Virus record (IMG/VR): IMGVR_UViG_3300032157_000003
DNA length: 23,450 nt
Direction: 5' to 3' (one strand)
DNA from: a virus
Each line of letters begins with the position of its first letter. The stretch's first letter is position 1. Position numbers and translations under genes: made by a program. Below the pieces are notes generated by a model. It did not search any database. It had not been told where the DNA came from and saw only the letters and a list, made by a program, of their open reading frames with translations. Below are positions 1-22,600 of the stretch, one piece after another.

Positions 1-2064
1 GCTGGGTACGCCATCCAAATCCTCGAAAAGAAGATTGCGGATGCGAAAGAGGAAATGCGACTCAACGTCGAGCGCAACGACCCGAACATGGAGTCGAAGA
101 ACAAGGCCCTGCTTGAGCAGCGTGCGGGCCTTGTAAACGACCTGATGCTGGTCAAACGCGACCTCGGCAAATCGACGCAGGACCTCAATCAGGAAGAGGC
201 CAAGGTCAACAACCGTCGCGACACCAATGCCGCGAAGGCCAAGCAGACCCGGCTGACTGACGTCTTGTCGAACGCCGGGGCGGACACTCCGAAGGAAGTC
301 ATTCAGGCTGCCATCGAGGCCTATGACAAGAACCAGCAGGAGCTGAACCGCCTGCTGGAAGAGCGCAAGGTCATCGAAGGCACGCTCTCGGCGGAGTCGA
401 AGGCTGAGATCGAAGAAGCCCAGCGCAAGCTGCTCAAGTACAAGGAGCAGAACGCCTACCTCGACCTCCTGCAACGGCAGGAGGCGGAGATTCGTGCGCG
501 CAATAACCGGGCGCTGGAGAAGCCGCTGTCGTCGGGCGACACCACCGAGGACGCCCGCCTTGGTGGCCTTGGGGTAGTTCCAGGCTCGCGCACTGACCGC
601 TCCCAATTCTTGGCGTACCAAGCCCAGTTGCTTGCGGACAACGTGGGGAGCGTCAACCGGCAGATTCAGGAAAACGAGCAAACCAAGTCGGATGCGGAAG
701 CCTTCCTGAAGGCCAACCCGGACCCGAACACTGTCGGCTACGACCAGCAATCCAAGAACCTGTCGGAGTCGTCCAAGAAAATCGACGACCTGAATGCGGA
801 GATGGACGGCTACCGCATCCGCATCGGTGAGATTCGCAACGAGCTGAACAACGTCCGTCAGACCCTGCCGGGTGCGCTGGATCAGGCGTTCAACCTCGAC
901 ACCATCATCCTCGGTCTGGAGCAGGCGGACTCTGGCGTCGAGAAGCTGGCTGTCAAGATTCACACCGCGCTGATCGCCGGGATCGAGGGCGTTGGCGATG
1001 CGTTTGCCGACTCCCTGCTGGAAGGTAAGGACTTCTTCGACTCGCTGAACGACCTGTTTATCGACACCGGTAAGCAGATTCTGCGCGACGTGATCAAGAC
1101 CTACACCACGGAGACCATCACCAGCTTCCTGAAAGGGTTCTCGCCAAAGGCGAAGGCAGACGCTGGGACATCTGACCCGGTGGGCAACCCGCTGGGCGGT
1201 GGGTTGTTTGGTATGGGTGCTGGCCTGCTGAAGAAAGGCTGGGACTGGGTGACCGGCGCCCCACCGGCAGCGAAGACCGCCCCGGCGAACGTGTCGGGTT
1301 ACGGCATTGGCATGGAGCTGCCAATCGACGAAGCCCCAGCGGGCGGCGTGCTGATCAGCTCCGCCAACCTGATGGGCACGATGGGCAAGGCTGCTGGCCT
1401 GACTGGCAGCCCTCAACCGGCACCGGCTGTGGGCAACAACACCGTGCTGGCAGACGCCGCAGCGGGCGAGGCCAAGGGGTTCTTCGCCTCCCTGTCTGAT
1501 GGCTTCAGCAGCGTCTGGGACGTCATGTCTGAGGGGTTCACTGGCGCGCTGTCCGGCATTGGTGACCTGCTGGGCATCGGCGGTGGCGGCGGTAAAGGCG
1601 GTGGCGGCGGTGTGCTGGGCCTGCTGACCGCAATCATTCCGGGCATGAAAACCGGCGGCATTATCCGTGCGGCAACCGGCGGCATCATCGTTGGTCGGGG
1701 CACAGGTACTTCTGACTCTGTACCCGGCCTCATCCGGGCCAAGAATGGTAAGCTCCATCCGCTGATGACCAGCAATGGCGAGTCGATCCTGAACGCCAAA
1801 GCCACCAGTGCCTTGGGCGAGGGCACCATTCACTCCCTGAACTCGGGCAACTTCCTGCGTGCTGATACAAGCGGCCTTAGCCGTGACAGCGCACGCATGA
1901 TGGCCGGGGTGCAGACAGGTGGTGGCGGTTCGCAAAGTAACTTTGCGAAGGTTCCGCTCAAGCAATACAACACGACTCAGGTGGCGGTCACCCCTGCTCA
2001 GATGCGTATGCGGATGGGTGACTGGCTTGAACAACACGTTATCGAGGAGCTGGGGAGCCGATGA
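1..2064 (+). CDS. Tail tape measure protein, C-terminal part (5'-truncated by the window)
   Basis: Frame is open from base 1. Long Ala/Gln/Glu/Leu-rich helical region, then Gly-rich segments and the typical TMP C-terminal motif GGII.GRGTGTSDSVP...SNGESILNAKAT. Lies upstream of tail-tip genes. Confidence 0.88.
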   Translation, partial: AGYAIQILEKKIADAKEEMRLNVERNDPNMESKNKALLEQRAGLVNDLMLVKRDLGKSTQDLNQEEAKVNNRRDTNAAKAKQTRLTDVLSNAGADTPKEVIQAAIEAYDKNQQELNRLLEERKVIEGTLSAESKAEIEEAQRKLLKYKEQNAYLDLLQRQEAEIRARNNRALEKPLSSGDTTEDARLGGLGVVPGSRTDRSQFLAYQAQLLADNVGSVNRQIQENEQTKSDAEAFLKANPDPNTVGYDQQSKNLSESSKKIDDLNAEMDGYRIRIGEIRNELNNVRQTLPGALDQAFNLDTIILGLEQADSGVEKLAVKIHTALIAGIEGVGDAFADSLLEGKDFFDSLNDLFIDTGKQILRDVIKTYTTETITSFLKGFSPKAKADAGTSDPVGNPLGGGLFGMGAGLLKKGWDWVTGAPPAAKTAPANVSGYGIGMELPIDEAPAGGVLISSANLMGTMGKAAGLTGSPQPAPAVGNNTVLADAAAGEAKGFFASLSDGFSSVWDVMSEGFTGALSGIGDLLGIGGGGGKGGGGGVLGLLTAIIPGMKTGGIIRAATGGIIVGRGTGTSDSVPGLIRAKNGKLHPLMTSNGESILNAKATSALGEGTIHSLNSGNFLRADTSGLSRDSARMMAGVQTGGGGSQSNFAKVPLKQYNTTQVAVTPAQMRMRMGDWLEQHVIEELGSR
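1929..1949. repeat. Dispersed palindrome copy 1: TTCGCAAAG-TAA-CTTTGCGAA
   Basis: Read directly; 9-bp arms (10 if the central T/A pair is counted), inside the TMP gene. Confidence 0.9.
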
Positions 2065-5076: not shown

Positions 5077-6552
5077 ATGAGAACAGACATCTACCTCCCT
5101 GCTTACGCTCTGAATGACATCGAGCGGGAGATCACCACCAAGCTCTTCAGGTCTGCGACCACGACGTGGGAGCACCTGATCATGGGCACGGCCACGCCTG
5201 ACTTCGACCTGTCGCCCTTCGTGGACAGCCTGAGCTGTTCGGCCAGCGGTGCGGACCTGTCGCTGAAGTTCAACCATGAACTGTTCGGCTCGACCCAGCC
5301 ACGCATCGGTGACTTTTTGCAGATCACTTGCGACGGACAGCCGCTGTTCAATGGGCAGGTTGACGGGTTGACTGGCTACCGGGAAGAGCGCGGTGTCCGT
5401 ACTCTCGGCCTGTCGATCAAGACTCGGGACGCCACCCCGCTGTGGCGTCAGACCAGTTGGACGACCGCCACCTACCCGGCGGGCACTGAGCTGGGCGTCA
5501 TCATTCAGGACGTGCTGAAGGCGGTAGGCCTGACCACAGGAGAGATGCCGTCCCTGTTCCTGACCGGCCTGAACACCGTCCACGGCGACACTCAGTTGGC
5601 CGACCTGCCGGTGTGGGACCTGCTCACCCTGATCCTGCAAGCCAACGGCCTGGAACCTTTCATCACGGCCACCGGCAAGATGACGACCATCTCCCGCGAC
5701 GTGATCCGCAACCACGACCTGCAACTGGAGTCCGAGGACATCCTGAGCATTTCCGGGGAGCGGGTGCGTCCGCCGATCACCAACCTTGTCGTGAAGTGGT
5801 TGAACCCGGAGCTGGCCAAGACCAACACCCAGACCCAAGTGCTGGCGAAGGAGTCGATCACTGCGGGCTTCTTCAAACTCAAGCAGGAGCGGAAGGTTTA
5901 CTGGTCGGAGGACCGGCGCCAACGGGCAGAGAACACCTTCATGAAGGTGCTGTCCTCGGTGAACGACGGCCTCTTGCCGGTGGGCGATGAGGACTACGAG
6001 CAGCGGGACGAGTTCTCCGGCAAGATCACCGTCACCACCCTGATGTGGGTGCCGACCTTGGCCACCATCACCATGTCCATCATGCTCCTGTCGGCAGCCC
6101 TGCCGGACGGCGTGGCCTCCCTCGGCGGTGGTGTGACCATCCCGATTGGCCGGCGGATCGAGGCAGCGGGTCAGGTGGCCTACTTCCTGATCATCATGTC
6201 GCTGGGCACTGGCAACTATGAAATCTGGGGCGACCCTTACGACTACGTGCATGAGACCAACACCACCGAAGCCTACGACCAGAACGCCCCGGCGTGGGTA
6301 CGGCTGGAGGAAACCATCTCGTCCGACTTCATCATGAACGAAGCCCATGCGCAGGCGATGGCCGTCCGTGAGCTGCTGTATCGCAGCATGTCGGCGCACA
6401 GTTGGAACGTGGATATTGTCGACAACCCGCTGATCGAGAAGGGTGACATCCTGCGCCTGCCGGACGGTTCCAGGCTCTACGTGGTCGACTACTCCCGCGA
6501 CCTGTCGCACGGTGCGCCTGCCGTGCTTTCTGTGAAGGGGTTCCGTGTATGA
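5077..6552 (+). CDS. Baseplate hub / central tail protein (Tal/gpD-like)
   Basis: DLSPFVDSL, IGDFLQI...LFNGQVD and C-terminal NPLIEKGDILRL patterns are typical of hub proteins; synteny agrees. Confidence 0.65.
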   Translation: MRTDIYLPAYALNDIEREITTKLFRSATTTWEHLIMGTATPDFDLSPFVDSLSCSASGADLSLKFNHELFGSTQPRIGDFLQITCDGQPLFNGQVDGLTGYREERGVRTLGLSIKTRDATPLWRQTSWTTATYPAGTELGVIIQDVLKAVGLTTGEMPSLFLTGLNTVHGDTQLADLPVWDLLTLILQANGLEPFITATGKMTTISRDVIRNHDLQLESEDILSISGERVRPPITNLVVKWLNPELAKTNTQTQVLAKESITAGFFKLKQERKVYWSEDRRQRAENTFMKVLSSVNDGLLPVGDEDYEQRDEFSGKITVTTLMWVPTLATITMSIMLLSAALPDGVASLGGGVTIPIGRRIEAAGQVAYFLIIMSLGTGNYEIWGDPYDYVHETNTTEAYDQNAPAWVRLEETISSDFIMNEAHAQAMAVRELLYRSMSAHSWNVDIVDNPLIEKGDILRLPDGSRLYVVDYSRDLSHGAPAVLSVKGFRV

Positions 6553-7061
6553 GTGGATACCTGACGTACCTGATGCGGGCAGAGATCGACCAAGCCACCC
6601 GCGAGATCGACGGCACGACCCTGACCCGCCCTACCCTGCTGATCACGGACGGCATCGGCCTGACCTACGGCGTGGACGTGGACGTGGGCGTGAAGGCCAT
6701 CGACAACAACACGGGCGACGAAGTGGTCACCCCGCTGCGCAACGTGCCCATCGCGGCGGCGAACAAGGACTTGATCTACACCGACATCGGCTCGGCGGTG
6801 CGCTTGCGGCGCTCGGACTCTGGCAGGTGGGAGGTGGTAGGCTTCTCCAAGCGGCGCGTAGGGACATATACAAGGGTGGGTGTCGTTATCCCTGAACCCG
6901 GTTTCGATCCGGTTCCCTATACTATCGCCACGCCTGTCAGCATTGGCTTGTCCGCCAGAGCTATTACCTACGGGGAGCTGGCGACCTACGGCGGCTACGG
7001 GACAGTGCCCTACGGAACCACGGCCATTTTCAGTGGCGACACCCTTCTTGAGCTGAGGTAA
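6549..7061 (+). CDS. Tail-tip protein of unknown function (possible OB-fold)
   Basis: ATGA overlap with the hub gene; beta-rich LRNVPI...GSAVRL...WEVVG segment. Confidence 0.6.
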   Translation: MSGYLTYLMRAEIDQATREIDGTTLTRPTLLITDGIGLTYGVDVDVGVKAIDNNTGDEVVTPLRNVPIAAANKDLIYTDIGSAVRLRRSDSGRWEVVGFSKRRVGTYTRVGVVIPEPGFDPVPYTIATPVSIGLSARAITYGELATYGGYGTVPYGTTAIFSGDTLLELR

Positions 7062-7064
7062 CAC

Positions 7065-8654
7065 ATGCCAATTTCTCTGCAATCGTTCGCCATTGGTGAC
7101 GCGAACTACATCAGCAAGCACAACGCCAACGTCGCCGCCCTGCTGTCCTTTCTGGGGAGCGTGGAGTCCACGCTGGCTACCGTGTCGGGCGCCAGCAGCG
7201 GCGCGGCGAACGCGGCGAACATTGGCTCGGCCACCTACGGTGCCAGCGGCATGGTGTTCGTAGGTTCCGATGCGTTCTCCGACAGCACCAGCGGCACGAA
7301 CCTCACCCTGACCGGCGGCTTCTGCTGGGATGGGACCATGGGCATGATGCACTACAAGGACACCAGCACGGTGATCCCGTTTGTAGGGCTGGCGGCAGGG
7401 ACCTACTACATCCGCTTTGACGGGACCGACACTCCATATGCCGACACCATCACCTCCAGCGCGATCTACAGCGTGGTGTGGGGTGGGTCGACCTTCAGCA
7501 CCATCACCCAGCTCGCCACCATCACCCCGACCGCACCAGACATCAGCGCGTTGAACGCCAGCACCTACTCGGGCATCACCTACGCGACCCCGGCTCAGCG
7601 CCTGCTCGCCACGGAGAAGGCCTTCAGCGACCTGCTGGCGGCAGACATGAGCGTGGGCAACTTCACTCCTACAGCCGCGCAGGCGATGGAAGCCATCGGC
7701 CTGCGGCTGACCGGCGCGGTGACTGCCAACCGGACCATCACCGTGCCGAACAAGGACAAGGTGTATCTGGTCGTCAACGAGTTCACCGGAGCCTTCACTG
7801 TGACGGTGAAGACGGCGGCAGGGACGGGTATCGCGCTGGAGGCCGGCGAGAGCGCTGTCCTGTATTGCGACAGCACCAACGTGGTTCATATTTTCCGCCA
7901 AGGCGGGAACGTCCCGATCAACAGCTTGCTCAAGTTGAACGACACCCCGGACTCCTACACCGGCCAAGGCTTGAAACTGCTGCGCGTGCGGGAGGACGAG
8001 ACGGGCACCGAGTTGGTGGCCCCTGCCTCGGTGCTGACCTCCACCCTTGTGGTCAAGGACGAAGGCTCGGCGGTTGACAGTGCGGTGGCCGGGATCAACT
8101 TCGAGGGCTCTGGCGTAGCCGTGACCCAGACCTCTGCCGGTCAGGTGAAGGTCACGGTCACTGGCAGTGGCCCGCTGTCGGTCGAGGACGAAGGCGTAGA
8201 GGTGGACGCTGCCACCGTCCTGATCAACTTCGAGGGCGACGGCGTGACTGTCACACAGACCGCCAGCGGCCAGATTCTGGTGACGATCCCAGGTGCTACA
8301 GGCGGCGCGGTGGACTACGACCTCTCGACCTACATTGCCGACAAACGCCCAAGCGGTGCGGTCGCGTATCGCCACACCTTCACCAAGGCGGTGGACTTCG
8401 CGGCGAACTTCGCCCTGTCGGACGCCGATGCGGTGGCGGCGGCTACGGCCTCGGCTGTGTTCCTGATCAAGAAAAACGGGACCCAAGTCGGCACCCTGAC
8501 CTTCGCAGCCTCGGGCACCACCGGCACCTTCGCCACCACGGGCGGCTTGACGGTGAGTTTCGTTGCCGGTGACATCCTTGAGATCACCGCGCCAAGCCCG
8601 CAGGACGCTACCCTGCTGGGCGTCTCCATCACGATGGCCGGTGTGAGGGCCTAA
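7065..8654 (+). CDS. Tail fibre / structural protein with two 43-aa repeats and a C-terminal beta domain
   Basis: GAGGT RBS; Thr/Ala/Gly/Ser-rich; tandem LxVxDEGxxVD...INFEGxGVxVTQTxxGQ repeats. Confidence 0.75.
   Translation: MPISLQSFAIGDANYISKHNANVAALLSFLGSVESTLATVSGASSGAANAANIGSATYGASGMVFVGSDAFSDSTSGTNLTLTGGFCWDGTMGMMHYKDTSTVIPFVGLAAGTYYIRFDGTDTPYADTITSSAIYSVVWGGSTFSTITQLATITPTAPDISALNASTYSGITYATPAQRLLATEKAFSDLLAADMSVGNFTPTAAQAMEAIGLRLTGAVTANRTITVPNKDKVYLVVNEFTGAFTVTVKTAAGTGIALEAGESAVLYCDSTNVVHIFRQGGNVPINSLLKLNDTPDSYTGQGLKLLRVREDETGTELVAPASVLTSTLVVKDEGSAVDSAVAGINFEGSGVAVTQTSAGQVKVTVTGSGPLSVEDEGVEVDAATVLINFEGDGVTVTQTASGQILVTIPGATGGAVDYDLSTYIADKRPSGAVAYRHTFTKAVDFAANFALSDADAVAAATASAVFLIKKNGTQVGTLTFAASGTTGTFATTGGLTVSFVAGDILEITAPSPQDATLLGVSITMAGVRA
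8046..8294 (+). repeat. Intragenic tandem duplication, about 129-nt period (2 copies)
   Basis: GGACGAAGGC, GATCAACTTCGAGGGC and CAGACC blocks recur 129 nt apart (units start at 8046 and 8175). Confidence 0.85.
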
Positions 8655-8657
8655 CCC

Positions 8658-10823
8658 ATGACGATCCTTTATGTGGACCCGGTTGCAGGGAACGACGCCA
8701 ACAACGGCCTGTCGTTCGCCAACCGCAAGCGCACCTTCAACTCGGTCACGAGTGCCGCCGCCGAACTCGACACCATCCGGTTGATCGCCAGCCCCGACCC
8801 TTTCAGCGTCGGCAGTGCGTCGTGGACGGACTGGACGAAGGACATCACGTGGACCAACACCTCCAACCTGAAGATTGATGCTTGCGACTCCGGCTGGACA
8901 GCGGCAACCAACGTCACGGTCACCCACCCGACTGGCAAGAGCAAGACCGGCAGCGCCCACGTGCAGTTGGCTATCGCCAGCGGGTTCACCACCGGCAAGG
9001 CGGCGTACAAGACGCTGGCCGCGCCCCTGACCGTCTCGGCGTTCCAGCAGATTGCCTTCTACTTCCAGTCGTTCAACTCGTCGAACGTCAGTTTCAAGAT
9101 TTGCCTGTGCTCGGACACCACCGGCAACACCATCGTGGCCGAGATCACCAAGACCATGACGTGGATTACTGACTTCCTCCAGTCGGACTCCACCACCACG
9201 GCCTATTGGACCCCGGTGCATCTGGACTACGGTTCGGCCCTGCCGGGAACCTCGATCAACTCCATCGCCATTTACATGACGGTAGACCCCGGCACCGTCA
9301 CGCTCAGCTTCGACGGGTTCACCCTCTGCAAAGCCCCCGGCGCGTCGGACCTGATCGACCTGTACTCCATGATTGGGAAGAACGCAGGTTCCGAGACGGA
9401 GTGGTACCCGATCACCGATCTGGCTGAGACCGGCGTGAAGGTGACGGGGCACTGGCAGAAAATCCGGGGCGGCTTCACCCTGACTGACCGCGACTATCGC
9501 GGGACCACGGAGTCCGTGACGACCTACATCCGCAACCCGCTGAAGCTGGGGCAGGGAGTGACGTGGGACAACACGGACATCCGGTACCAGAAAAACAAGA
9601 TCACCATCGAGGGTGGTTACAACCGCACCGACATGAGCACCAAGACCGGTGAGACATGGCTTTGCGGGATGACCCTGTACAGCGGGATCAGGCCAGACAT
9701 TGTTAACTACTCGGACGTTAGCCTGTTGAACATGGGGTTCACCCACTGCGTCATTGGGGCCAAGGACATTGTTGTTGGTCAGGGCAAGTTGGCGACCCCT
9801 TCGGTCTACGACTTCCTTGGCTTCATCGCGTGCGAAACCCCAGTTACCTTCCTGCCAACTGGCGGCAGCAACAACATGCGCTATGCCGGGTACTACGACT
9901 TCCGCTGCAAGCAGGTCTGGGCCAGTCTGCTGCCTCTGAACACGCCGAACCGCCCCGGCAAGTACACCGTGGGGCGTATCCACGGCTACCAGCGTTCCGA
10001 CAGCGGCACGGCTGCATGGATTCCGGGGGCTTCTTTCCAGGCCAACCCGATCACCTACGTCATCGGCAAGATTGACGGCAACAAGGCCGGCATCATGCTG
10101 GACAACACTTTTAACGACCTCAAGTTGGTGGGGACGGTCATTCAGAACAACGATAACGACTGGGCGGTGACACTCCAGACCGGGCGACCATTCCACCTGC
10201 ACTTCGACAACATGGCCGAACTGATGTTGGATGCGGACTACGACGGCTCGAACCTGTTCTACGCGCTGGACAACTACCCAACCATCGTCCGTCAGACCCG
10301 CATTGGTGGCGACCCTACCAAGAACCGAACCATCGTGAATGGCAACGAGATTTTCGAGAGCAGCACGGCGATCCGCCACACGGCCAGCGGGCTGTCGTGG
10401 CGCCTGCAATCCGCCAAGTGGGGCTACTTCATGAACGACCGACCAGCCGGGGCTCCGGGCCACCTGCTGGGTTACGTGGCGTGCGAGGCCGACAAGGAGG
10501 TGACCGTCACCTGCTGGATGTACGTGGAGTACGACGTCTACAAGCAGTACGACGACCCGATGGACGACCCTGCGGCGATTTGGGGGATCATGGTGCTGCC
10601 GGACGCCACCATGGAGATTCCGCTGATTCAGGTGGCTGCCAACATGGCGACCATCGGCTCGTGGCAGCAGGTGACGCTGAACTTCACGCCGGGGGAGACT
10701 GGCGTGGTTCCAGTGTACGCCTACGTCTACGCCCAGTACGGCAGCTACGGCCCAGCCGAACTGACCCCGCCGGAAATCTACTCGGTCTACTACGATGACC
10801 TCGAAGTGACACAGGCGACCTGA
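8658..10823 (+). CDS. Tailspike / receptor-binding protein, probable beta-helix with carbohydrate-binding modules
   Basis: N-terminal YVDPVAGNDANNGLS...KRT motif is typical of pectin-lyase-like/DUF1565 proteins; CBM-like C-terminus (WQQVTLNFTP...VYYDDLEV). Confidence 0.65.
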   Translation: MTILYVDPVAGNDANNGLSFANRKRTFNSVTSAAAELDTIRLIASPDPFSVGSASWTDWTKDITWTNTSNLKIDACDSGWTAATNVTVTHPTGKSKTGSAHVQLAIASGFTTGKAAYKTLAAPLTVSAFQQIAFYFQSFNSSNVSFKICLCSDTTGNTIVAEITKTMTWITDFLQSDSTTTAYWTPVHLDYGSALPGTSINSIAIYMTVDPGTVTLSFDGFTLCKAPGASDLIDLYSMIGKNAGSETEWYPITDLAETGVKVTGHWQKIRGGFTLTDRDYRGTTESVTTYIRNPLKLGQGVTWDNTDIRYQKNKITIEGGYNRTDMSTKTGETWLCGMTLYSGIRPDIVNYSDVSLLNMGFTHCVIGAKDIVVGQGKLATPSVYDFLGFIACETPVTFLPTGGSNNMRYAGYYDFRCKQVWASLLPLNTPNRPGKYTVGRIHGYQRSDSGTAAWIPGASFQANPITYVIGKIDGNKAGIMLDNTFNDLKLVGTVIQNNDNDWAVTLQTGRPFHLHFDNMAELMLDADYDGSNLFYALDNYPTIVRQTRIGGDPTKNRTIVNGNEIFESSTAIRHTASGLSWRLQSAKWGYFMNDRPAGAPGHLLGYVACEADKEVTVTCWMYVEYDVYKQYDDPMDDPAAIWGIMVLPDATMEIPLIQVAANMATIGSWQQVTLNFTPGETGVVPVYAYVYAQYGSYGPAELTPPEIYSVYYDDLEVTQAT

Positions 10824-12223: not shown

Positions 12224-12243
12224 TTCGCAAAGTGCTTTGCGAA
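12224..12243. repeat. Dispersed palindrome copy 2: TTCGCAAAG-TG-CTTTGCGAA (intergenic, putative operator)
   Basis: Read directly; 5 nt after the stop at 12218 and 19 nt upstream of the extended -10. Confidence 0.92.
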
Positions 12244-12262
12244 GGTGGTGGCGGTACGCCAG

Positions 12263-12271
12263 TGCTATAAT
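12263..12271 (+). promoter_or_regulatory. Extended -10 sigma70-type promoter (TGCTATAAT) for the lysis-type cassette
   Basis: Perfect TGnTATAAT in the only sizeable + strand intergenic gap; AAGGGGGG RBS before ATG 12314; no good -35 at 17 bp. Confidence 0.7.
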
Positions 12272-12313
12272 AGCCCGGAATAAAGCAGGTGGCTGACACC
12301 TCAAGGGGGGCAT

Positions 12314-12873: not shown

Positions 12874-13319
12874 GCATGCCTGAGTTCGTACCCAAGTTCC
12901 TGACCCCGCTGGTCCTCGAAGAGTACATGCGTGGCGCTCGGTCTGTGCCGGGTGAGTGGGTCGTGTTCCAGCCCCTGATCTACGAAGGCTCGCTGGGGCA
13001 GATGATCGTGCCGCGTGGCTTCATCACGGACTTGGCGTCGATCCCGAAGTTCATGCGCGGCCTGCTCGATGTGAACGACTCACACCGCAGGGCGGCGGTG
13101 CTGCATGACTTCCTGTATTGCGCGCAGCATCTGACCCGCAAGCAGGCGGATGACATTCTGCTTGAGGCGATGGAGGCTATCGGGGTGCAGGCCTGGAAGC
13201 GCAACGCGATGTACGCGGCGGTCAGGGTGGGTGGCTGGGCTTACTGGAACAAAAGGGCCAACGAGCGTCCCGCGAACGGGAAAGACTTCGTTGGCCCTAA
13301 CTACTTCAACGTCCCTTGA
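12870..13319 (+). CDS. DUF1353 family protein
   Basis: VPRGFITDLASIP, AAVLHDFLY, RKQADDILLEAM and MYAAVRVGG motifs. Confidence 0.88.
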   Translation: MSMPEFVPKFLTPLVLEEYMRGARSVPGEWVVFQPLIYEGSLGQMIVPRGFITDLASIPKFMRGLLDVNDSHRRAAVLHDFLYCAQHLTRKQADDILLEAMEAIGVQAWKRNAMYAAVRVGGWAYWNKRANERPANGKDFVGPNYFNVP

Positions 13320-13521
13320 ACTTGAGGCGTTTCTGAAAATCCTCGCGACAATCCGCATCGCAGAAGCGGCCCTGCTCCAAAGGTTCTTCGCAATTCAGGC
13401 AGTGGCCGGCAGCGGTACTCAGTACCTCTTCCAGCTCCTGCCCTGCTTTGCGCTGCCTTTCAATGGCCACTTCAGTCTGCAACAGTTCCAGCTCTGAGGC
13501 GTTATCGGTCCAGTCACTCAT
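13306..13521 (-). CDS. TraR/DksA-like zinc-finger protein
   Basis: N-terminal MSDWTDNA (DxxDxA as in TraR), helix, CxxC-x9-CxxxC. Confidence 0.72.
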   Translation of the reverse strand: MSDWTDNASELELLQTEVAIERQRKAGQELEEVLSTAAGHCLNCEEPLEQGRFCDADCREDFQKRLKFKGR

Positions 13522-13814
13522 GAGGGTGTCTCTCCATGTAAGGTCGTCAGATGGTAGCGCGGGACGTCCTCCGCCAGAGTGCTAGGGGTGAGCCATACCA
13601 TCGGCTTGAACTCAGCAGGAATGGGTTCACCCCGCTCCTGCAACGTCTCACGGGCCTTGCACCAGAACTTCAGCGACTGCATTGTCGGCGGCGCCTTGAT
13701 AGCCGGGGAAGGGGAGTAGAGGTTTTCACAGAACCGCGCCTCTTCCTCCTGATCAGCCCGCCACGCCACCAGCAATTTCTCAAACTCCCACTGACTTAAA
13801 ACATAGCAGGCCAT
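13518..13814 (-). CDS. Hypothetical protein (98 aa)
   Basis: Start reassigned to ATG 13814 (MACYVLSQW) with GAGGT RBS just after the sbcC-like stop; ATGA overlap with the next gene. Confidence 0.65.
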   Translation of the reverse strand: MACYVLSQWEFEKLLVAWRADQEEEARFCENLYSPSPAIKAPPTMQSLKFWCKARETLQERGEPIPAEFKPMVWLTPSTLAEDVPRYHLTTLHGETPS

Positions 13815-13822
13815 GGCGCACC

Positions 13823-16060
13823 TCAGAGCGTGATCGAGTGGTTGAACACCGAGGAATCCAGTTCCCGGTGGCTGACCATGATGACCTGTTTGCCGCTCGC
13901 CGCCAGCAGGGTGGAGAACGCCAAGGCGTGCTCCGGGTCCATGTCGGCAGTCGGTTCGTCCATCAGGATCACGTCCAGCGGGCATTGCGCCGCCTCTGCC
14001 AGAGCCATCTGCACCGCGCAGCCGATGATGGCGAGCTGGGCACCTGACCCTTCCTCAAGGCTCATCTCGAAGCCTTCCTCGAAGAAGGTGAACGCGCCTT
14101 CGCTGTCCCGGCTCAACTGCTCCATGTAGCCTGCGGTCAGGGTGCTGGCGAACAGGCTGGCCGAAGCCATGAACACGTTCCACACCTGCTTCGAGTAACG
14201 GTCGCGGTTGCCACGGATCAGGTCGCGCAATTGTTCCATGGCCGACACCTTCACCAGCGCCTCTTCGTACTTGGCGTTGTTGGCCAAGCCGGCGGCGATC
14301 TCCTGCTCCAGCAGTCGCACCTGAGTCATCAGGTTGCCGGTGAGCTCCCGATTCTTGTCCCGCTCAACCATCACCTCGTCGTACAGGTAGCGAAGGTTGC
14401 CACGGAGCTTCTGCACCTGCTCCAGCAATTCGCCTGCATGTTCCACGTGGAACACGTCATGCGTTTTCAGCAGTTCGTCGTGGATGCGCTGGGCTTTGGC
14501 GTGCGCCGCGCTGGCGTCCTCGGCAACCCGCTCGGTGTCCTTCAGCTCGCCAATCGCATTGCTCAGGTTGCGCGACAGTTGGCGCGAGTGCTCCAGCAGT
14601 TCGTCCAGTGCGACCAGTTCCTGCTTGAGGTTTTCGGCGTTTGGCAGGGGTGCCAGCTCCAGGGACTTCAAGGCCAGCGAGTGGCGCAGTTTGCCCGCGT
14701 GCGAACGGTAGTCCTCCAGCGCGATACCCTTGCGGCGCACCTCGTCCTGAGCGCGAGCCAGCTTGTCCTCCTGCTCCATGAAATCGCTGAAGCGGGCGTG
14801 CAGCTCCTTGACCCGCTCGTCAATCATGCTCAGGTCGGTGAGAGCTTTGGTGACAGCTCGCTTCGATTCCTCCGGGTTGTAGTCCTCGAACGGGCGCTTG
14901 CAGCTATCGCACAACCCGTTCTCCACGGTGGAGCGGGCGTGCTTGAGCCGGTGGACGTACTCAGGGCGACTATCCCTCAGTGCGTTCAGCTCATGCTCAA
15001 CGAGCAGCGATGCTTCCTTGTCCAACGGTGGCAGCGAGTTCATCAGGTTGGTGGCTAGCTGCAATTCCATCTCCAGCTTGTCCTCACCATCGGTCAGGCC
15101 TTGGCACGCTTTGGTCAGGGTTGCCACCTCGACGCTCAGGGCGCGGCTCTGGCGTTCCTGTTCGACGATGGCACCACGACCATTGGCCAGCTTGACGATG
15201 CTCTCAGCCAGTACCAAGTCCTCGCCGCCGCACAGCTTCAGCGACTCGATCTGAAGTTCGGTCAGCTTGTCCTTCACGGCGGTGTAGCGGTGGCAGGCCG
15301 TGTCCATGGTCAGGTTGGCGTAGTTCATCTCCCGCTTGGCGTCGTGCAACTCGGAACGGACCTTGTTCAGGCGTCGTTCCTCCTGCTCGGCTTCCTCCAG
15401 CTCCTTGCTCATCTTCTTCAGGGTTTCGTTGTCATGCTCCAGCGCGACGGTGGCCGTTTCCAGCGCCTCCCGGCAGGCCTCCTGCGCGGCCTGCTTCGGC
15501 GCAACGTCGATCTCTGGCGTCAGCTCCACAATGTGGCGATGCACCTTCAGGTCGTTGTCCAACAGGGTGAGCACGGACATGATCCGCTCCAACCCGGTCA
15601 ACTCAGTCACGATCTTGAACAGCTCGCCGGAGCCGGCCTTGAGGATCGCGTCGGCGGCTTTCTGCTTGGCGTACTTGATCTGGGCGAAGCGGCGCAGCGG
15701 CATGCCCAGCAACTCAGCGATGGCGTTGTTCACCGGAGTGGTGCCACTGGCGACCAGTTCCTCCAGCCCTGCTGCATCCAGCCGTTTCAGGTTGGCGGCG
15801 GTCTTGGTGCGCTGGACGATGTAATCACCCTTGCCGGGAATGGCGAACCACAGGGTCTGACGGAAGCCCGCGTTGGTGCCACGGGTGGCGATGCGGCTGC
15901 CTGGAACCATGCGCGAACCGCCGAGGCAGAACAGGATGCCCAGCAGGATGGTGCTCTTGCCCTTGTAGTTCGGGCCGGTGATGCCGTTCAACCCCTCGGC
16001 AAAGTCCACCGTCAGGTACTCGTGCTTCTTGAAATAGTTCAGCTCAAGCTTCTTTAACAT
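13823..16060 (-). CDS. SbcC/Rad50-like ATPase (T4 gp46 / T5 D13-like)
   Basis: Walker A GPNYKGKST, coiled coils, central CDSC zinc hook, signature GSGAQ, Walker B ILMDEP, H-loop VSH. Confidence 0.92.
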   Translation of the reverse strand: MLKKLELNYFKKHEYLTVDFAEGLNGITGPNYKGKSTILLGILFCLGGSRMVPGSRIATRGTNAGFRQTLWFAIPGKGDYIVQRTKTAANLKRLDAAGLEELVASGTTPVNNAIAELLGMPLRRFAQIKYAKQKAADAILKAGSGELFKIVTELTGLERIMSVLTLLDNDLKVHRHIVELTPEIDVAPKQAAQEACREALETATVALEHDNETLKKMSKELEEAEQEERRLNKVRSELHDAKREMNYANLTMDTACHRYTAVKDKLTELQIESLKLCGGEDLVLAESIVKLANGRGAIVEQERQSRALSVEVATLTKACQGLTDGEDKLEMELQLATNLMNSLPPLDKEASLLVEHELNALRDSRPEYVHRLKHARSTVENGLCDSCKRPFEDYNPEESKRAVTKALTDLSMIDERVKELHARFSDFMEQEDKLARAQDEVRRKGIALEDYRSHAGKLRHSLALKSLELAPLPNAENLKQELVALDELLEHSRQLSRNLSNAIGELKDTERVAEDASAAHAKAQRIHDELLKTHDVFHVEHAGELLEQVQKLRGNLRYLYDEVMVERDKNRELTGNLMTQVRLLEQEIAAGLANNAKYEEALVKVSAMEQLRDLIRGNRDRYSKQVWNVFMASASLFASTLTAGYMEQLSRDSEGAFTFFEEGFEMSLEEGSGAQLAIIGCAVQMALAEAAQCPLDVILMDEPTADMDPEHALAFSTLLAASGKQVIMVSHRELDSSVFNHSITL
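14439..14454. promoter_or_regulatory. Chromosomal-type parS site TGTTCCACGTGGAACA
   Basis: Perfect 16-bp palindrome matching the widespread ParB-binding consensus TGTTNCACGTGNAACA; function here untested. Confidence 0.75.
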
Positions 16061-16274
16061 TGTCCCTTCCCCTTTGTTCCACTCGACGTTTCGTCAGTTG
16101 CACCCGGCAGCGTGCGTCACAGAAAACCTCGCCTTCGAGGTTCACCGCTCGCCCACGCTCAAGGGCCGTGCGCAGCATCTGCTCCCTTGGAATGAACTCG
16201 CCTTCAACGTATTGGCCCTCCAGCGCTTGCTGGCAGAAGGCGCAGGTCAACTCGCACCACACCTCTACCAACAT
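16044..16274 (-). CDS. Small Cys-containing hypothetical protein
   Basis: TGATG coupling to the sbcD-like gene; CAFC and FCDARC motifs. Confidence 0.6.
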   Translation of the reverse strand: MLVEVWCELTCAFCQQALEGQYVEGEFIPREQMLRTALERGRAVNLEGEVFCDARCRVQLTKRRVEQRGRDNVKEA

Positions 16275-17383
16275 CAGTCTTCTCCCAACCCGGCCAGCGT
16301 GCGGCCCCAGAACGACAGGAACAGGTCCAGCAGATCAGGCGCGTCCTTCAGGTCGTCCATCACCACCTTGTCGATGGATTGGAAATCGTAGGACACGGCG
16401 TCACCACCGGTGGCCTTGACGATCTCCGCCTTGTTGCGGATCGCCAGCGGCTCGTAGGTCGTCCACAGGCCACGGATCGCCTTGGCCATGTGCATCACGT
16501 GTTCTGGTGGTAGCTTCCCGACGATCTCAATGAACTGGACCCCCTGCGGAACTGTCTCAGGAATGCCACCGATCAATGCCTCGGCGTCGAGCTGGACGTA
16601 CTTGCCCTCCGGCGACCAGATGGTACGGAACTCATGCCCGCCGTCCGCCTTGATCTCCAGCACACGCTTTGGCCCGATGTCACCGAAGCCAGTTGGGTGC
16701 ATGTTGCCGAGGATGATCACCCGGCCCTCGAAGTCCTCGCGGGGGTGGTGGTCGTGACCAATCAGGATGTAGTCGATCCCTGCATCCAGCAAATCCTTGG
16801 CCTGCTTGCGGGTCAGCGACAGGGCTGTCTCGTCCACGGCGAACCCGGAGTCGTAGTTGCAGTGCAGGCAGAGGTAAGCCTTGGGCTTCACGCTGCGGGT
16901 GATCTGGCGCTGGTGCGCCCACTCCATCACGTCATCCAGCGAGCGCTGGAACAACTCGTCGGTGGTGTGATGCGGCACGAAAATGAAGTCGAAGCCGGCA
17001 ATCGAGTTCAGGTAGCAGCGCGACTCACCGAAGCCCGACAGCAGGATTTTGCAGTCGGACTCGTACTCTTCCATCAGGTGGCTCAGGAACTCCAGGCTCC
17101 CGACCTTGTTCTTGTCGGCGGTGACGTCGTGGTTGCCGGCCATGATGTAGTCGCTGTTCTCGGCAATCCGCAGCCCCTGCTGAATCACCACCTCGGGGTT
17201 GGTGAACTGGTCGAACAGGTCGCCCAAGCAGACCTTGTAGCAGCCCGCCGGGGAGTCCTTCAGGGTGTCGTCCACGGTCTTGTAAATGGTGTCGCGCAAC
17301 CGCGCACGGCTGTTGGTGGTGGTGTGGGCCTGCATCGTGCGGCCCAAGTGTGGATCGGTGTAGACGGTAATCACTGTGGTCAT
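16274..17383 (-). CDS. SbcD/Mre11-like metallophosphoesterase nuclease (T4 gp47 / T5 D12-like)
   Basis: DPHLG, GDLFD, GNHD, H and GHDH motifs; paired with the SbcC-like gene. Confidence 0.92.
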   Translation of the reverse strand: MTTVITVYTDPHLGRTMQAHTTTNSRARLRDTIYKTVDDTLKDSPAGCYKVCLGDLFDQFTNPEVVIQQGLRIAENSDYIMAGNHDVTADKNKVGSLEFLSHLMEEYESDCKILLSGFGESRCYLNSIAGFDFIFVPHHTTDELFQRSLDDVMEWAHQRQITRSVKPKAYLCLHCNYDSGFAVDETALSLTRKQAKDLLDAGIDYILIGHDHHPREDFEGRVIILGNMHPTGFGDIGPKRVLEIKADGGHEFRTIWSPEGKYVQLDAEALIGGIPETVPQGVQFIEIVGKLPPEHVMHMAKAIRGLWTTYEPLAIRNKAEIVKATGGDAVSYDFQSIDKVVMDDLKDAPDLLDLFLSFWGRTLAGLGED

Positions 17384-17384
17384 G

Positions 17385-17879
17385 TCAGGCCCCCGCCGCG
17401 CTGAAGCGCGGGTTGTCGATCAGTGCGGCCTCGAAGACCGCCTTAAATTCCTTGAAACTCTTGAAGTGCATAACGATCCCATCGGGCTTGAGTCGCCCCC
17501 TGTAACTTGCACGGACCGTAGCCACGTGCTCGCCTGACCATAATTCAATTGCCCCGTCCTGCTGCGACAGGAACAGGACGTGGGTGACTGCCCCGGCCCG
17601 CGCCCAAAAGCGGAGTTGTGCTGCCTGACTGGTGTTCATCAGCGAGGACAAGCCACTCACCAGCGTCTGGTGCGTGTGGCTCGACTTCAGCTCGAACAGG
17701 TGCAGGTGTTGTTCCATCAAGAAGAAGAAGTCCCCCGGCTGCTCCGGCATGTACCCGCCTGCCGAGTGTGCGTCGTACAGGCGGTGAACCGCCGCCCGGT
17801 GCCGGGTGGTGATCCCCTTGCACAGCAGGCGGAAATCTTCCTCAAACTCCTTCCCTACCTCTTGCGGCGTCTTGGCCAT
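17385..17879 (-). CDS. PD-(D/E)XK endonuclease, Holliday-junction-resolvase-like (RecU/Hjc type)
   Basis: GKEFE...PGDFF...FELKS catalytic pattern; recombination context. Confidence 0.7.
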   Translation of the reverse strand: MAKTPQEVGKEFEEDFRLLCKGITTRHRAAVHRLYDAHSAGGYMPEQPGDFFFLMEQHLHLFELKSSHTHQTLVSGLSSLMNTSQAAQLRFWARAGAVTHVLFLSQQDGAIELWSGEHVATVRASYRGRLKPDGIVMHFKSFKEFKAVFEAALIDNPRFSAAGA

Positions 17880-17888
17880 GGTCTTCCC

Positions 17889-18392
17889 TCAATCACACGA
17901 ACTGCTGGAGCTGCTGCTGGAGCTGCTGTCGCAACTCGAACTGCTGCTGGAACTGCTGTCGCCGCCGTAGCTGCTGTAGCTGGAGCTGCAAGAGCTGTGG
18001 GAGCGAGAAGGTGTGTAATCGTCGTCAGACCTCGACGTGTGGCGGTGTTCGCTGTGGGAGCGAACTGGCGCGCACTCCGGTTCGTCCCTGCGAGTGTCGG
18101 TCTGGTTCATCGGGTTCAACGGGCTCAACGGGTGAGCCGGGTTCATCAGGTAGTCGTCGCGCCCGCTGCGATCCGCAGGCCTGGAACTTGACGACGCTGA
18201 CCTCGGTGGTGGCGGTGCTGACGAAAACTTCGGCGGTGGTGGTGTCGCTGACCTCGGGTTTCTCACAGGCGGCATTTGGGGCCGCTTAACGTCCCTTGGC
18301 CAGACCGGTTCTGACGTCTCGTTCGCAAAGTCCTTTGCGACTTCACGCTTGCTCTTCTTCTTGCGGAACAGCGACAGCAGGAACTCGAACAT
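17889..18392 (-). CDS. Low-complexity Pro/Ser-rich protein (167 aa)
   Basis: Start reassigned to ATG 18392 (MFEFLLSLF) with AGGAG RBS; poly-Ser C-terminus. Confidence 0.75.
   Translation of the reverse strand: MFEFLLSLFRKKKSKREVAKDFANETSEPVWPRDVKRPQMPPVRNPRSATPPPPKFSSAPPPPRSASSSSRPADRSGRDDYLMNPAHPLSPLNPMNQTDTRRDEPECAPVRSHSEHRHTSRSDDDYTPSRSHSSCSSSYSSYGGDSSSSSSSSCDSSSSSSSSSSCD
18322..18341. repeat. Dispersed palindrome copy 3: TTCGCAAAG-TC-CTTTGCGAC
   Basis: 8-bp perfect arms, one terminal mismatch to the consensus; inside the Ser-rich gene. Confidence 0.85.
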
Positions 18393-18403
18393 GGTGTAAC
18401 TCC

Positions 18404-19672
18404 TTAGCAGAGAACAGCAATGCGACGTGGGCGAGAACATGCAACGTAGAGGCTTTGCAGTGCTTCCAGAGTGTTCTGGTTGCACAGGATGTCGCCGGTA
18501 TCGACGAACACGGTGTCGTAGGTCGACCCCTGCGCCCGGTGCGAAGTGATCGCGTGGCACGGACGAATGTCGTGGATCGAGTCCTTCAAGTCCCAGAACG
18601 CTGCCCAAGAGCCGTTGCCGATCCGGGCGCTGTTCGACATTTCGGTGAGCATGGCGTTGTAGTCGCGGCGGCTGTCCTCGTGGACCACGAAGCCGACCAC
18701 CCACTGATCCCAGAAGTCCGGCTGGATGGTCATGGCGTAGACTTTCAGGTTGCCGTAGATCGGGTGCTGCATGATGACCACGTGCTCGACGGTGCCTTCC
18801 TCGTCGGTCGCCATGCCCAGCTCATCGCCCACCATGATCGGCTGGCAGGTAACGACCCGCTCACCTTCGTGGAACGGCATCTCGGCAGCCATCTTTGGCC
18901 CGTACATCGCATCGCGGATCAGCTCGTTGTAGAACTTCACCGTGTCGTTGCGCCACGCGATCACCTTGAACGAGTTAGGGTTGGCCTTGTAGCTGTCCGA
19001 GGTGAACGCCTCGCAGGCACGGCGGCGCAGCGCCTTCCAGTTCAGTTTGTAGACGCCGCCGTGCTCGTCGTTGTCCGAGTCGAGCGACAGGTGCGCCTGC
19101 CCTGCCTGGACCAACCGGATGTGGTTGGCGAGGGTCAGAATCTGGTTGTCGTGGCGCTCCACCTTGGTCAGCTTGCGGTAGTAGCGGATGTCCAGCACCT
19201 GCGAGCGCTCCTGACCCACAGGCGGCAACTGGCAGCCGTCGCCCATGAACAGGAACTTCACGCCGAACTCCCGCGCTGCACGGCAGATGTGGCCGAACAG
19301 GGAGTCGTTCACCATCGAGCCTTCGTCCACCACGATGACGTCGTACTGGTTGGCCTTGTTGCCTTCCTCGTTGACGGTGATCTCGCGGCACTCGCCGTTG
19401 CTGTCCAAGCGCAGACCCAGCAGGGAGTAGATGGTGCTGGCGTCGATGGTGCCTTCCAGCTCCTGCCGCGCAGTCTCGCGCAGCACCTTGGAGGCCTTGT
19501 TGGTTGGTGCGGTCAAGGCGACCCGCAAGCGGGTCTCCCTGATGAATGTCTGCACGCAGGTGGTCTTACCTGTACCGGCGCTTCCCAGCAGCAGGAAGAA
19601 CGGCTCCACTCCCTTGGCGAAGACGTGCATCTCGTCTACGGCTCCGCGCTGGTCACTGTTCAACTGGATCAT
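18404..19672 (-). CDS. Dda/RecD-like SF1B helicase
   Basis: GSAGTGKT, APTNKA, VDEGSMV, GDGCQLPPV, TSHRAQGSTYD and YVACSRP motifs. Confidence 0.92.
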   Translation of the reverse strand: MIQLNSDQRGAVDEMHVFAKGVEPFFLLLGSAGTGKTTCVQTFIRETRLRVALTAPTNKASKVLRETARQELEGTIDASTIYSLLGLRLDSNGECREITVNEEGNKANQYDVIVVDEGSMVNDSLFGHICRAAREFGVKFLFMGDGCQLPPVGQERSQVLDIRYYRKLTKVERHDNQILTLANHIRLVQAGQAHLSLDSDNDEHGGVYKLNWKALRRRACEAFTSDSYKANPNSFKVIAWRNDTVKFYNELIRDAMYGPKMAAEMPFHEGERVVTCQPIMVGDELGMATDEEGTVEHVVIMQHPIYGNLKVYAMTIQPDFWDQWVVGFVVHEDSRRDYNAMLTEMSNSARIGNGSWAAFWDLKDSIHDIRPCHAITSHRAQGSTYDTVFVDTGDILCNQNTLEALQSLYVACSRPRRIAVLC

Positions 19673-19698
19673 GTCTTACTCCCCTTATTGATCTTTGC

Positions 19699-22600
19699 TT
19701 ACCGACGCCACCCTTCGGCGTACCACTTGTCGAACAGCGCGGTGATCTTCTTCTCCGAAGGCCGGTCGTGCAGTTCGTTGGCCGCAACCTCGTGCCAGTT
19801 CCTGCCGATGGACACCTCTGCCAGCATCGGAATCTTGTGGCCTGGAGGTGTGATGTTCATGATGTCCTGCGCACGCTCGACGAACTCGAAAACGTTGTCG
19901 ATTGGAACGCTGTTGGTCAATTCGTCATAAACCGGGGCGTACAGGATTGCGTGTGTCTCTTCGTACAGGCGGGTGTGGTGAGCGTTGGTCAGTACGACCT
20001 TCAGCACGTCAGCAGCGCCGCCCTGAATCTTGTGGTTCACCGTCTGCCGCTCAGCGCGTGCCCGCAGGCTGCCTTCCCGGCTGAGGATGTTCACGTCGCA
20101 GTGCTTGCGAGTGCCAAAGGCCGTGGTGATGTAGCCCTGTGTCCGGCCTTCTGCGATGGTCTCCTGCTGCCACGCACCGAGGCGCGGGTAACCGGCGAAC
20201 ACACCGTCGATGATCTTCTGTGCCGCCCGCTCAGGGATGCCCAGCTTCATGCCCATCGAGAACGCCTGACCGCCGTAGATGATCAGGAAGTTAACGGTCT
20301 TGGCCATTTTCCTGACCTTGACGATGGTCTTCTGCAACTTGTCGCCAACCACCTCGAAGCGTTCGTACACCGGGTCTTTGCGGTCCAGCAGGTTGCAGAA
20401 CAGCTCGTAGTCCAGCGTGCCCGTCTCGCTCCAGATCAGCTCGTCGAGGATGCGCTTGCCCAGCTCCTGCTCCAGCACGTGACTGGCGAAGGTGCAGCCG
20501 GTCATGGCGTGGATGTCGCGGAAGTTGGCGCGGGTCATGCCGTCTTCGTCGATGTACGTCCCGCCTGCCGTGTAGGCCTCGATCAGTACCGGGTCGTTCG
20601 ACTCGGAGCCGGTGATGCGCAGCTCCTGCCCGGAGAAGTCGAGCGACACCGACACGTGGCTCGGGAAGCGCGGGATGAAGATGCCCCGCAGCGGACCCTT
20701 GGACACAGCCAGCACGTTCAGGTTGGAGCCAGCAGGGCGGCGGGTCACGGTGCCGCAGTTACGGGTGCCGGGGTGAACCGCGCCGTCGCGTGGGTGTTTC
20801 CAGTGCGGGTACTTCTTGTAGTACAGGGAGAAGCGGGTCTGACATTCCTTGACCTCAAGGAACTTCTGCAACAGCTCACGGCGCCAGTCGCCTTCAGGGC
20901 AGTCCTCTGCCAGTGCAGCCATCACCGACTCTTCGTTGGTGCTTGGCGCACCTTCCAGGCCCAGCTTGTCGCGCTGCGAACCACGGTCAGGGAAGGTGCG
21001 GATGCGAACCGGCAGAGCCAGCATGCAGTACAGCATCTCGGTCATCTGCTTGGCCGAACCGAAGTTCAGCTCGCAGCCTGTCTCGATCACCTTGCCGCTC
21101 TCGTGCAGGATGTTGGCCTCGACGTACTGCTTCAGCGCCTCGAAGGCGGAACCCTTGCGCTCCTTGAACTCCTGCATACCGCACTCGGCCAGCAGGGTGA
21201 TCAGCTTGTCAGCCCGTGGGTCCACGCCCTCGGCGGTCAGGTCAGCCTTGATGCTGATCAGCCACTCGGTCAGGCCGGCAGCGCTCAGCTTCTCCAGCGG
21301 GGTCTTGATCCCCACCAGTTCGGCGCAGCGGCTGAAGCCCTTGGCGGTCGGCATGAACTCTTCAGGACGATGCGATGACGTGAACGGCACGTACACCGAC
21401 GCCTCGGTCCAGCGGATCACCGACTCAGCCAGCTTGGCCGTGGCCTGCGCCCGGTTCAGTTCCTTGGACATATGCAGACGAATCTGCGCCTCGCCCTCGG
21501 CACGCTTGAGCTCCATCGCCCCTGCCGGGTTCTGCTCGCGGCAGTGCTCGGACAGCAGCTCGCGGATGCGCAGCATGTTGGTGTCGATGGTGAGTTGGTC
21601 GGCCACCTTCAGGCGTTCCATCTCTTCGTAGTCGATCATCATGCCGGCTTCAAACGACCGGTTGAACGGGTGGCAGGTGAAGCGGTCGCGGTAGTAGGCG
21701 AAGTCCCACTGCTCTTCGAGGCAGAGCGTCAGGTACTGGAGCATGAACAGGCGACCGGACACGTAGGAGTCGTCACAGCCGTAGGCCAGCACCTGCTCAC
21801 CGGTCAGGTCGCGCATGTCCTTGGCGCCGTGCTTCTCCAGCAGGTCCTTGAACTTGGTTTGCTCGTAGGCGAAGTACAGGTTGGTCTGGTCCTTCAGGCC
21901 TGCGAACTGGTTTTCATCGACGTAGCTGGCGAGGACCTGGGTGCAGATCGGACCTTCCAGTTGGAAGTTCAGGTCCTGCTTCGACAGTTGTTCCTCGAAC
22001 CGGGCGTTGTGCGCCACGTAGTCCAGCTCAGCTTCTTCGATCAACGTCAGGAAGCTGGCGAGGGCGTCCCGTGGAGCATTCGCGGTATCGCGGTGCTGAA
22101 CAGGGATGTAAACGGTGTGCTGGAGGTTTGCTCCATAGCAGAACGAGCCGCCGGTCAGGCGCTGCGAGAGCACGTCAACGAAGTCTCCTTTGGCGGCGTC
22201 CGGCAGGGCTGGCTTCCAGTCCTTGCCGAGTGCGTCATAGGATTCATAGTCGAAAGGAACGTAGGGGGTTTCGCAAAGTGCTTTGCGAAAGTGATCGAGA
22301 GTAGCAGGGACATCCTGTTCTTCGATCAGGGCGAAGCGGGGCAGGAACGGCTCGAACACATCGAACATGTAGTCCGCGCCTGCGGAGTGCAGGACTTGCT
22401 TCACACGCTCAGCGTCCGCCATGCGGACGTACCACTCAGGCTTGATGATCTCCTTGGCGGTGGCGCGGTGGCACAACTCAGGGTGCAGGTCAGCCAGCAG
22501 GTACATGGTCCGCCAGATGCCCCGGTTTTCGTACAGCTTGTTCAACACTTTGCAGTTGGTGGCTTCGACCGCCATCTTGAGATAGCTGAAGTCGTTGGCC

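Follow-up and report, generated by a model that had tools for sequence, protein, structure and literature searches.

A genome-wide array of selected dyad sites in a Lana/SHOU24-like siphovirus and its respelling in related phages

Why does one short palindrome recur in a phage genome, and why does it stand inside genes that encode unrelated peptides at those points? The question is raised by IMG/VR virus record IMGVR_UViG_3300032157_000003, of which a stretch of 23,450 nucleotides (here called the window) was analyzed. The initial annotation had picked out four dispersed copies of a palindrome, or dyad, and offered them as a centromere or operator system. The four copies are real and far exceed chance. 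The pattern TTCGCAAAG-N0-6-CTTTGCGAA has three perfect matches in the window, a number reached by 0 of 100 dinucleotide shuffles, and the fourth copy carries one outer mismatch. The perfect copies have the form TTCGCAAAG-N2/3-CTTTGCGAA and lie at 1929-1949, 12224-12243, and 22270-22289. The dyads belong to an array that runs through the whole genome of a close relative, the contig G002 introduced below.

1929..1949, no strand: dyad site 1, 3-nt spacer, within a tape-measure-like gene (peptide SQSNFAK), in a stretch outside G002 coverage
12224..12243, no strand: dyad site 2, 2-nt spacer, intergenic
12263..12271, plus strand: TG-N-TATAAT, an extended -10-like element 19-22 nt downstream of site 2, identical in G002
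18322..18341, no strand: dyad site 3, 2-nt spacer, one outer mismatch, within the Ser-rich open reading frame (ORF) 17889-18392 on the minus strand (peptide VAKDFAN)
22270..22289, no strand: dyad site 4, 2-nt spacer, within the family A DNA polymerase gene (peptide FRKALCE)

Four dyads in the window and thirty in a close relative

The three coding copies encode unrelated peptides (SQSNFAK, (V)AKDFANE, and FRKALCE), as had been claimed, and they use rare codons. A good example is the polymerase site, which contains TTT (32 of 278 Phe codons), AAA (53/326), GCA (84/664), and CTT (37/708). When synonymous codons were resampled in 20 window genes over 1000 trials, the mean was 0.002 copies and the maximum 1, compared to the three coding copies observed. 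The 21 identical bp noted earlier for sites 2 and 4 were also confirmed, inside a 33-nt repeat that is 91% identical. Site 2 lies 5 nt past the stop codon of a tail gene (11601-12218) and 70 nt ahead of the ORF at 12314. Judged by its letters, the TG-N-TATAAT element at 12263..12271 is a possible promoter for the genes at 12314-13319; it is absent from the consensus promoter list since that scan needs a -35 element. The Ser-rich ORF 17889-18392 (minus strand) encodes 167 amino acids, the last of them a low-complexity tail that is rich in Pro and Ser and closes with SSSSCD; it does not overlap its neighbors and is matched in G002 over the inspected part.

The window has a GC content of 61.5%, with tail genes on its plus strand and genes for SbcC, SbcD, a Holliday junction resolvase, Dda helicase, and a family A polymerase on its minus strand. 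It covers the tail and replication genes of a Lana/SHOU24-like siphovirus. The closest cultured phages by polymerase and primase (26-34% identity) are SHOU24, vB_VpaP_1601, and the K449 group of Vibrio and Lana, PMBT3, and UAntarctica of Pseudomonas, and the sequencing runs that match the window best are labeled soil metagenome. G002 is an IMG/VR contig of 66,336 nt that is 90-94% identical to the window over 5843-23450, with a synonymous divergence of 7-19% per gene. A second contig, G003 (7,684 nt), holds the remaining terminase, portal, protease, and capsid genes and one dyad site, and was taken as the continuation of G002 by gene order, the two having no sequence overlap.

In G002, the pattern TCGCAAAG-N1-3-CTTTGCGA occurs 30 times within two mismatches of the 8-nt arms, and within one mismatch there are 29 copies compared to 0 for a reversed control pattern. 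The near-invariant dyads thus total 30 in 66 kb of G002 plus the one in G003. Among these 31 sites, spacers of 2 nt are the most common (20 sites), followed by those of 3 nt (8) and 1 nt (3), so that the 2 or 3 nt of the initial annotation fits most sites and falls short of the real range of 1-3 nt. Its statement that the copies lie mostly inside genes likewise fits the window only. Genome-wide, 19 of the 30 G002 sites are outside genes, though only about 9% of the contig is noncoding, and 11 are inside (a script count of 20 nongenic sites was corrected to 19, as one sits in the Ser-rich ORF, which the gene caller missed). A start codon follows within 75 nt downstream at 18 of the 30 sites, and the usual order is stop codon, site, pyrimidine-rich spacer, AGGAG, and ATG. 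Site density is highest where the early region begins and then declines through the replication and tail regions: the first 12 kb hold 3 sites and 12-22 kb hold 11, followed by 7, 4, and 3 per 10 kb and by 2 in the last 14 kb. A genome scan against a codon-shuffled null, which had been proposed as a check, bears out the excess in genes: 10 copies were observed in called genes of G002, whereas 300 synonymous resamplings averaged 0.09 and never gave more than 1.

Pattern matches in IMG/VR came from 41 stretches, of which 19 are in G002 and the remaining 22 have one copy each. A metagenome scan returned 119 stretches, which came from 7 of 64 collection parts; none was related to this phage group by tblastn, and they were set aside as looking like chance singles. 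One 1.7-kb noncoding stretch of G002 (L043:13400-15140) carries four sites and tandem copies of a CCCTTAC(A/T)TC(C/T)TG-like repeat and is possibly a genome end or origin.

Constraint on the arms of the dyads

Suppressed variation at the coding copies had been named as a further check, and it was found at the two that G002 covers: between the window and G002, the arms are kept while the flanks drift. The Ser-rich site keeps 19 of its 20 bases (18322-18341), with substitutions directly on both sides, and the polymerase site (22270-22289) is identical. The same is seen outside genes, at site 2, where both arms are identical and both spacer bases are changed. Over 22130-22430, 0 of the 19 differences listed from four other sequencing runs hit the polymerase site, a weak observation as only runs X2 and X3 bridge it; runs X2-X4 are perhaps not independent of G002, X2 carrying the G002 allele at 22242. 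A sister clade without the motif has different orthologous peptides at three coding sites (HHKAFPK compared to HRKDFAK, YAEFFAD compared to YAKFFAK, and AYVEGLRD compared to HFRKALCE). The peptides differ at the site, and therefore the proteins themselves have probably given way to accommodate the dyad.

Both half-sites are needed, as just 1 of 56 exact half-sites in G002 stands outside a dyad. Five core variants occur, all of them one-sided and none compensatory. Because the arms are kept, the half-sites are paired, and the variants are one-sided, the sequence evidence points to duplex sites for a dimeric protein rather than hairpins. A dispersed site for a dimeric protein was among the suggestions of the initial annotation, and the genome-wide distribution, the selection at the DNA level, the paired half-sites, and the absence of compensatory variants all argue for it. 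The spacer range of 1-3 nt would in turn suggest a binder with flexibly linked reading heads.

Respelled arrays in related phages

The window's core motif was found once, in 1 of 29 related records. A dyad survey was made of 19 genomes, several of them partial and four read only to 77 kb, and 9 of the 19 have a dyad family of their own with differing spelling. The respelling follows lineage, as can be seen from the forms below, with that of G002 given for comparison.

G002: TCGCAAAG-N1-3-CTTTGCGA, 30 copies
K449 and SHOU24 (Vibrio): TTGGTCT-N-AGACCAA, 38 and 14 copies, 1-nt spacer
G020: CTGACATGTCAG, 17 copies, 0-nt spacer
G012 and G019: TCGGAC-N2/3-GTCCGA, 11 and 7 copies
G013: TGTACA-N2-TGTACA, 9 copies
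G016 and G018: CCTGTA-N2-TACAGG, 14 and at least 4 copies

The majority of the respelled copies are nongenic and lie directly upstream of starts. K120 g1 and K45 have 32 and 33 sites within their first 47-49 kb. In two genomes of the sister clade, G006 and G009, the heptad AATTCAC is repeated in both direct and inverted orientation, equally far from starts, and the repeats of G006 are reminiscent of omega-type sites. Lana has 13 loose TCGCTA-N2-TAGCGA matches, a count set against no null, and G011 has four copies of another dyad; nothing clear emerged from the survey for UAntarctica, G015, G026, G027, G029, or G031. Our literature search found no description of such repeat arrays in this phage group, and searches with the motif strings gave matches only to a short term. 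For instance, the main text of the report on PMBT3, a lytic phage without lysogeny genes, contains 0 occurrences of "repeat," "palindrom," or "motif" (PMC8421299). What is new here is the tolerance of a 1- to 3-nt spacer and the respelling across this phage group.

The closest published case is the dyad repeats of the Cluster O mycobacteriophages. They are given as a 17-bp dyad, TGTTCGG-N3-CCGAACA, with 34 copies in Corndog; about one-third are genic, and they are denser at one end, mostly off promoters, in phages with no integrase or parAB, their role being unexplained (PMC4351075). The G002 array is similar in having about 30 or more near-invariant dyads, an intergenic majority with about one-third in genes, a higher density at one end, and a position off promoters. 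It differs in its spacer, which varies from 1 to 3 nt in G002 and G003 compared to a fixed 3 nt, in its sequence, and in its host and phage group, and its relatives are respelled, one clade having heptad repeats.

Stoperators, which the immunity repressor of temperate phages binds (gp71 in L5), offer a second comparison. In the Cluster A mycobacteriophages, as summarized in the Cluster O report, they resemble the present sites in being numerous across the genome, where they occupy short gaps between genes close to start or stop codons and away from promoters, and they are asymmetric and oriented with transcription (PMC4351075). Unlike these stoperators, the sites here are symmetric, with an orientation skew of 8 versus 2 (P = 0.11), and the scanned proteins of this lineage gave 0 matches to CI or integrase. 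Genes of the lysogeny type do occur in relatives, with a tyrosine integrase in G013 and ParA in G006.

Possible roles of the array and the search for its binder

What might such an array do? The reading that we favor, at about even confidence, is that the dyads are a genome-wide selected array, likely bound by a dimeric phage protein, that serves as an operator or roadblock damping or timing early transcription. Under this proposal, a phage-encoded dimeric binder would accumulate during the early phase, its flexibly linked heads would read both arms across spacers of 1-3 nt, and the bound array would act as an operator or roadblock, so that early transcription would be lowered, and thus damped or timed. 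Few sites overlap sigma-70 consensus promoters, and therefore the effect would be mostly through blocked elongation. The distance of 12-60 nt from site to start codon would, judging from known activators, leave too little room for activator geometry. Taken together, the few promoter overlaps and the short distance to the start favor an operator or roadblock array. The promoter-linked exceptions are window site 2, which lies above the extended -10 element, and one K449 site and one SHOU24 site that overlap a possible -35 element.

A number of results weigh against this reading. The scarcity of overlaps with promoters is itself one of them, and the best promoter found (TTGACA-17-TACAAT, at 33508 in G002) carries no site. 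The sites are symmetric, in contrast to stoperators, and their orientation skew is not significant. A spacer range of 1-3 nt is atypical of a rigid dimer. A clear dyad family was not found in 10 of the 19 genomes surveyed, and the binder was not found by family scans, all-against-all clustering, or fold search. The scans, with PHROG or Pfam, covered 121 called proteins (23 from the window, 90 from G002, and 8 from G003) and gave 0 matches to ParA, ParB, integrase, CI, or RNA polymerase, with about 7 kb unseen, a part that holds neck and tail genes in G006. In the clustering of 19 proteomes, no family tracks dyad presence. Of the search for parA/parB or helix-turn-helix genes proposed in the initial annotation, the first part thus came back empty, and the second gave weak signals in two ORFs of 158 and 88 amino acids (E = 0.014 each), the 88-residue one being present also in the dyad-less sister clade. 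In K449 and SHOU24, a site stands directly upstream of a regulator gene, assigned to PadR by Pfam in K449; no PadR match was found among the G002 proteins scanned. The K449 locus (L052:26377-28433) consists of the PadR-family gene with three flanking sites, followed by a DndB-family gene.

One lead points to the first early gene, whose product is a candidate binder that neither fold prediction nor profile comparison bore out. In all eleven genomes checked, the early region opens with a lone gene for 200-390 amino acids, and the products group by lineage and are not alignable between lineages. In G002, this gene occupies 12318-13403, and a site precedes its start by 27 nt; the distance is 27-30 nt in G002 and G020, and G012 has no site nearby. 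The family of the G002 product is small, with 4 proteins and 3 representatives, and within IMG/VR both it and the multicopy motif are found in G002 only, a single co-occurrence. Further results on this product also count against the favored reading: it had 0 Pfam matches, one weak match to an uncharacterized PHROG, and no significant fold match, and its profile aligned to the first-gene family of G016 and Lana with an hhalign probability of 0.2%. The predicted models for G016 (predicted local distance difference test [pLDDT] score of 81) and G002 (pLDDT of 66, from four sequences) share one order of parts: helices come first, then a beta-hairpin and, past a linker, a helical C terminus. A PDB sequence search with the G016 family gave no match, and Foldseek searches gave none at E ≤ 0.001 for the G016 model against PDB, with weak rows for Zur and RsrR only, or for the G002 model against a viral library, where the family matched by the G016 model was not reached. 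That family comprises uncharacterized proteins of many lytic podoviruses, among them A24, TL, ICP2, Percy, RSB3, and tf, which the fold of the G016 product (L339:12975-13691) matches with a best E of 1e-4. In phiC31, a temperate Streptomyces phage, repressor c binds conserved inverted repeats, palindromic operators dispersed in intergenic early-region gaps much like the present sites. Its repressor is identified, unlike the binder here, and the sole link between the two is an Atlas feature score of 0.80 for PF25746 against the G016 first-gene product, flagged as often due to chance. The first early gene could encode a new DNA-binding family with a flexible link that reads private arrays respelled per lineage, as a self-recognition or shut-off circuit. 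We consider this unlikely; if true, the spelling, the spacer, and even the geometry (dyad or heptad repeat) would be rewritten per lineage in phages without lysogeny genes.

Other explanations must be weighed against an operator or roadblock array. The sites could be docking points for a protein that organizes, pulls in, or shields the incoming genome by spreading or bridging, with little direct effect on transcription. Sites are indeed spread over the entire genome and are found even midway through the primase, helicase, polymerase, and tape-measure genes, density drops away from the start of the early region, and most are off promoters; the Cluster O authors likewise infer a role outside transcription initiation (PMC4351075). 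Against docking, 18 of the 30 sites have a start codon no more than 75 nt away, a placement that may simply follow from where noncoding space is found, and no ParB or Noc-type protein was found among the scanned proteins of the G002 lineage, which leaves this explanation rather unlikely in our view. A dispersed centromere of a ParB/SopB-type partition system in a phage-plasmid, one of the candidates of the initial annotation, is very improbable because no ParA or ParB was found among the 121 proteins and the sites crowd ahead of early-gene starts. The SopB sites of N15 and the KorB operators of RK2 are inverted repeats that are dispersed and partly genic, as here, and depend on a ParB-family protein acting together with ParA or IncC, none of which was found in the window, G002, or G003. 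The sister genome G006 does encode ParA, a resolvase, and a Rep-like ORF, so that plasmid-like members may exist, and a DndB-family gene lies beside sites in K449. But G006 has no dyad, SHOU24 has sites and no annotated DndB-like gene, and no full-length primase relative was found among plasmids.

The phage could also exploit a host regulator, the spelling tracking different hosts. This would account for the failure of family scans and proteome clustering to find a phage binder, the Vibrio motif TTGGTCT-N-AGACCAA may resemble GntR-family operators, and the phage has one host-type parS copy. Yet neither of the two Pseudomonas genomes with the closest primase homologues has the motif, it occurred once, in 1 of 4 genomes searched, none of them identified as the true host, and the sister clade has an unrelated heptad repeat; a host regulator is thus quite unlikely. 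Little probability also goes to RNA stem-loops in 5' leaders or extruded DNA hairpins with a part in processing, stabilization, nicking, or priming, which the initial annotation had raised for extruded hairpins and nicking sites. Every site is foldable, at a predicted -7.2 to -9.3 kcal/mol as RNA, the variable loop would suit a hairpin, and the phage encodes SbcCD-like and resolvase genes. The flanks also lengthen the stem somewhat above chance, the second, third, and fourth outer pairs being Watson-Crick in 15, 11, and 10 of 31 sites. However, 0 of the 5 core variants are compensatory, and the outermost pair, Watson-Crick in 16 of the 31 sites, is C-A in 9 compared to T-G in 2. The Vibrio and G020 versions have spacers of 1 and 0 nt, and the direct heptad repeats of the sister clade are unable to form such a hairpin. 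The hairpin promoters of N4-type virion RNA polymerase lead one to expect a phage-encoded RNA polymerase, to which the proteins of the window, G002, and G003 gave 0 matches. Finally, the sites could be shared junctions for the recombinational swapping of early-gene cassettes. They lie between genes in the variable region, and in three Vibrio phages 11 of 35, 4 of 24, and 10 of 37 ends of homology blocks fall within 40 nt of a site, compared to 6.6% expected by position. The idea was rejected, and is extremely doubtful, as a control for gene junctions left no excess at those that bear a site (Fisher P = 0.76, 0.70, and 0.16) and the selected copies inside core genes are left unaccounted for.

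Some observations concern the wider biology of these phages. The parS copy just mentioned is a perfect 16-bp palindrome inside the SbcC gene (14439-14454), identical in G002, with single exact copies in Lana (29287, between converging arms) and G027 (5289); it matches the chromosomal parS consensus and may let the phage draw in the ParB of its host. Among the head genes of G003, L047:343-582 (minus strand) is an Acb2/Tad1-family gene (Pfam PF24729, E = 6e-21) whose product is a probable sponge against the cyclic oligonucleotide-based antiphage signaling system (CBASS). A CsrA homologue (L043:11573-11767) and an alginate lyase-like protein (L043:10928-11566) hint at a Pseudomonas-like host for G002. 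In G006, the most closely related complete genome, the loci L307-L311 (57008-57887, 73041-73676, and 79486-80842) hold genes for ParA and a small neighbor, a serine resolvase, the Rep-like ORF (our call; 0 Pfam matches), XRE, Arc, and two MvaT-like proteins; this gene content suggests a phage-plasmid. In two Pseudomonas chromosomes, the primase of this phage group and the small gene ahead of it are found within integrated elements (L374-L375, G034 84707-93383; L382-L383, G035 276084-283131), where a resolvase lies on one side of them and one or two integrase-like ORFs on the other. These primase matches were rejected as prophages, since they belong to small integrated elements (resolvase, small genes, primase, and integrase), possibly satellites, and therefore do not speak for a temperate life style.

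Dispersed dyad arrays in phages without lysogeny genes have been described yet are unexplained, as in Cluster O, and the present group offers a tractable test. Its cultured members SHOU24, K449, K45, and K120 g1 carry 14-38 sites, at least five spellings allow proteins to be matched to sites by swaps, and the 1- to 3-nt tolerance constrains the architecture of the binder. If confirmed, orthogonal protein-site pairs would be useful as regulatory parts.

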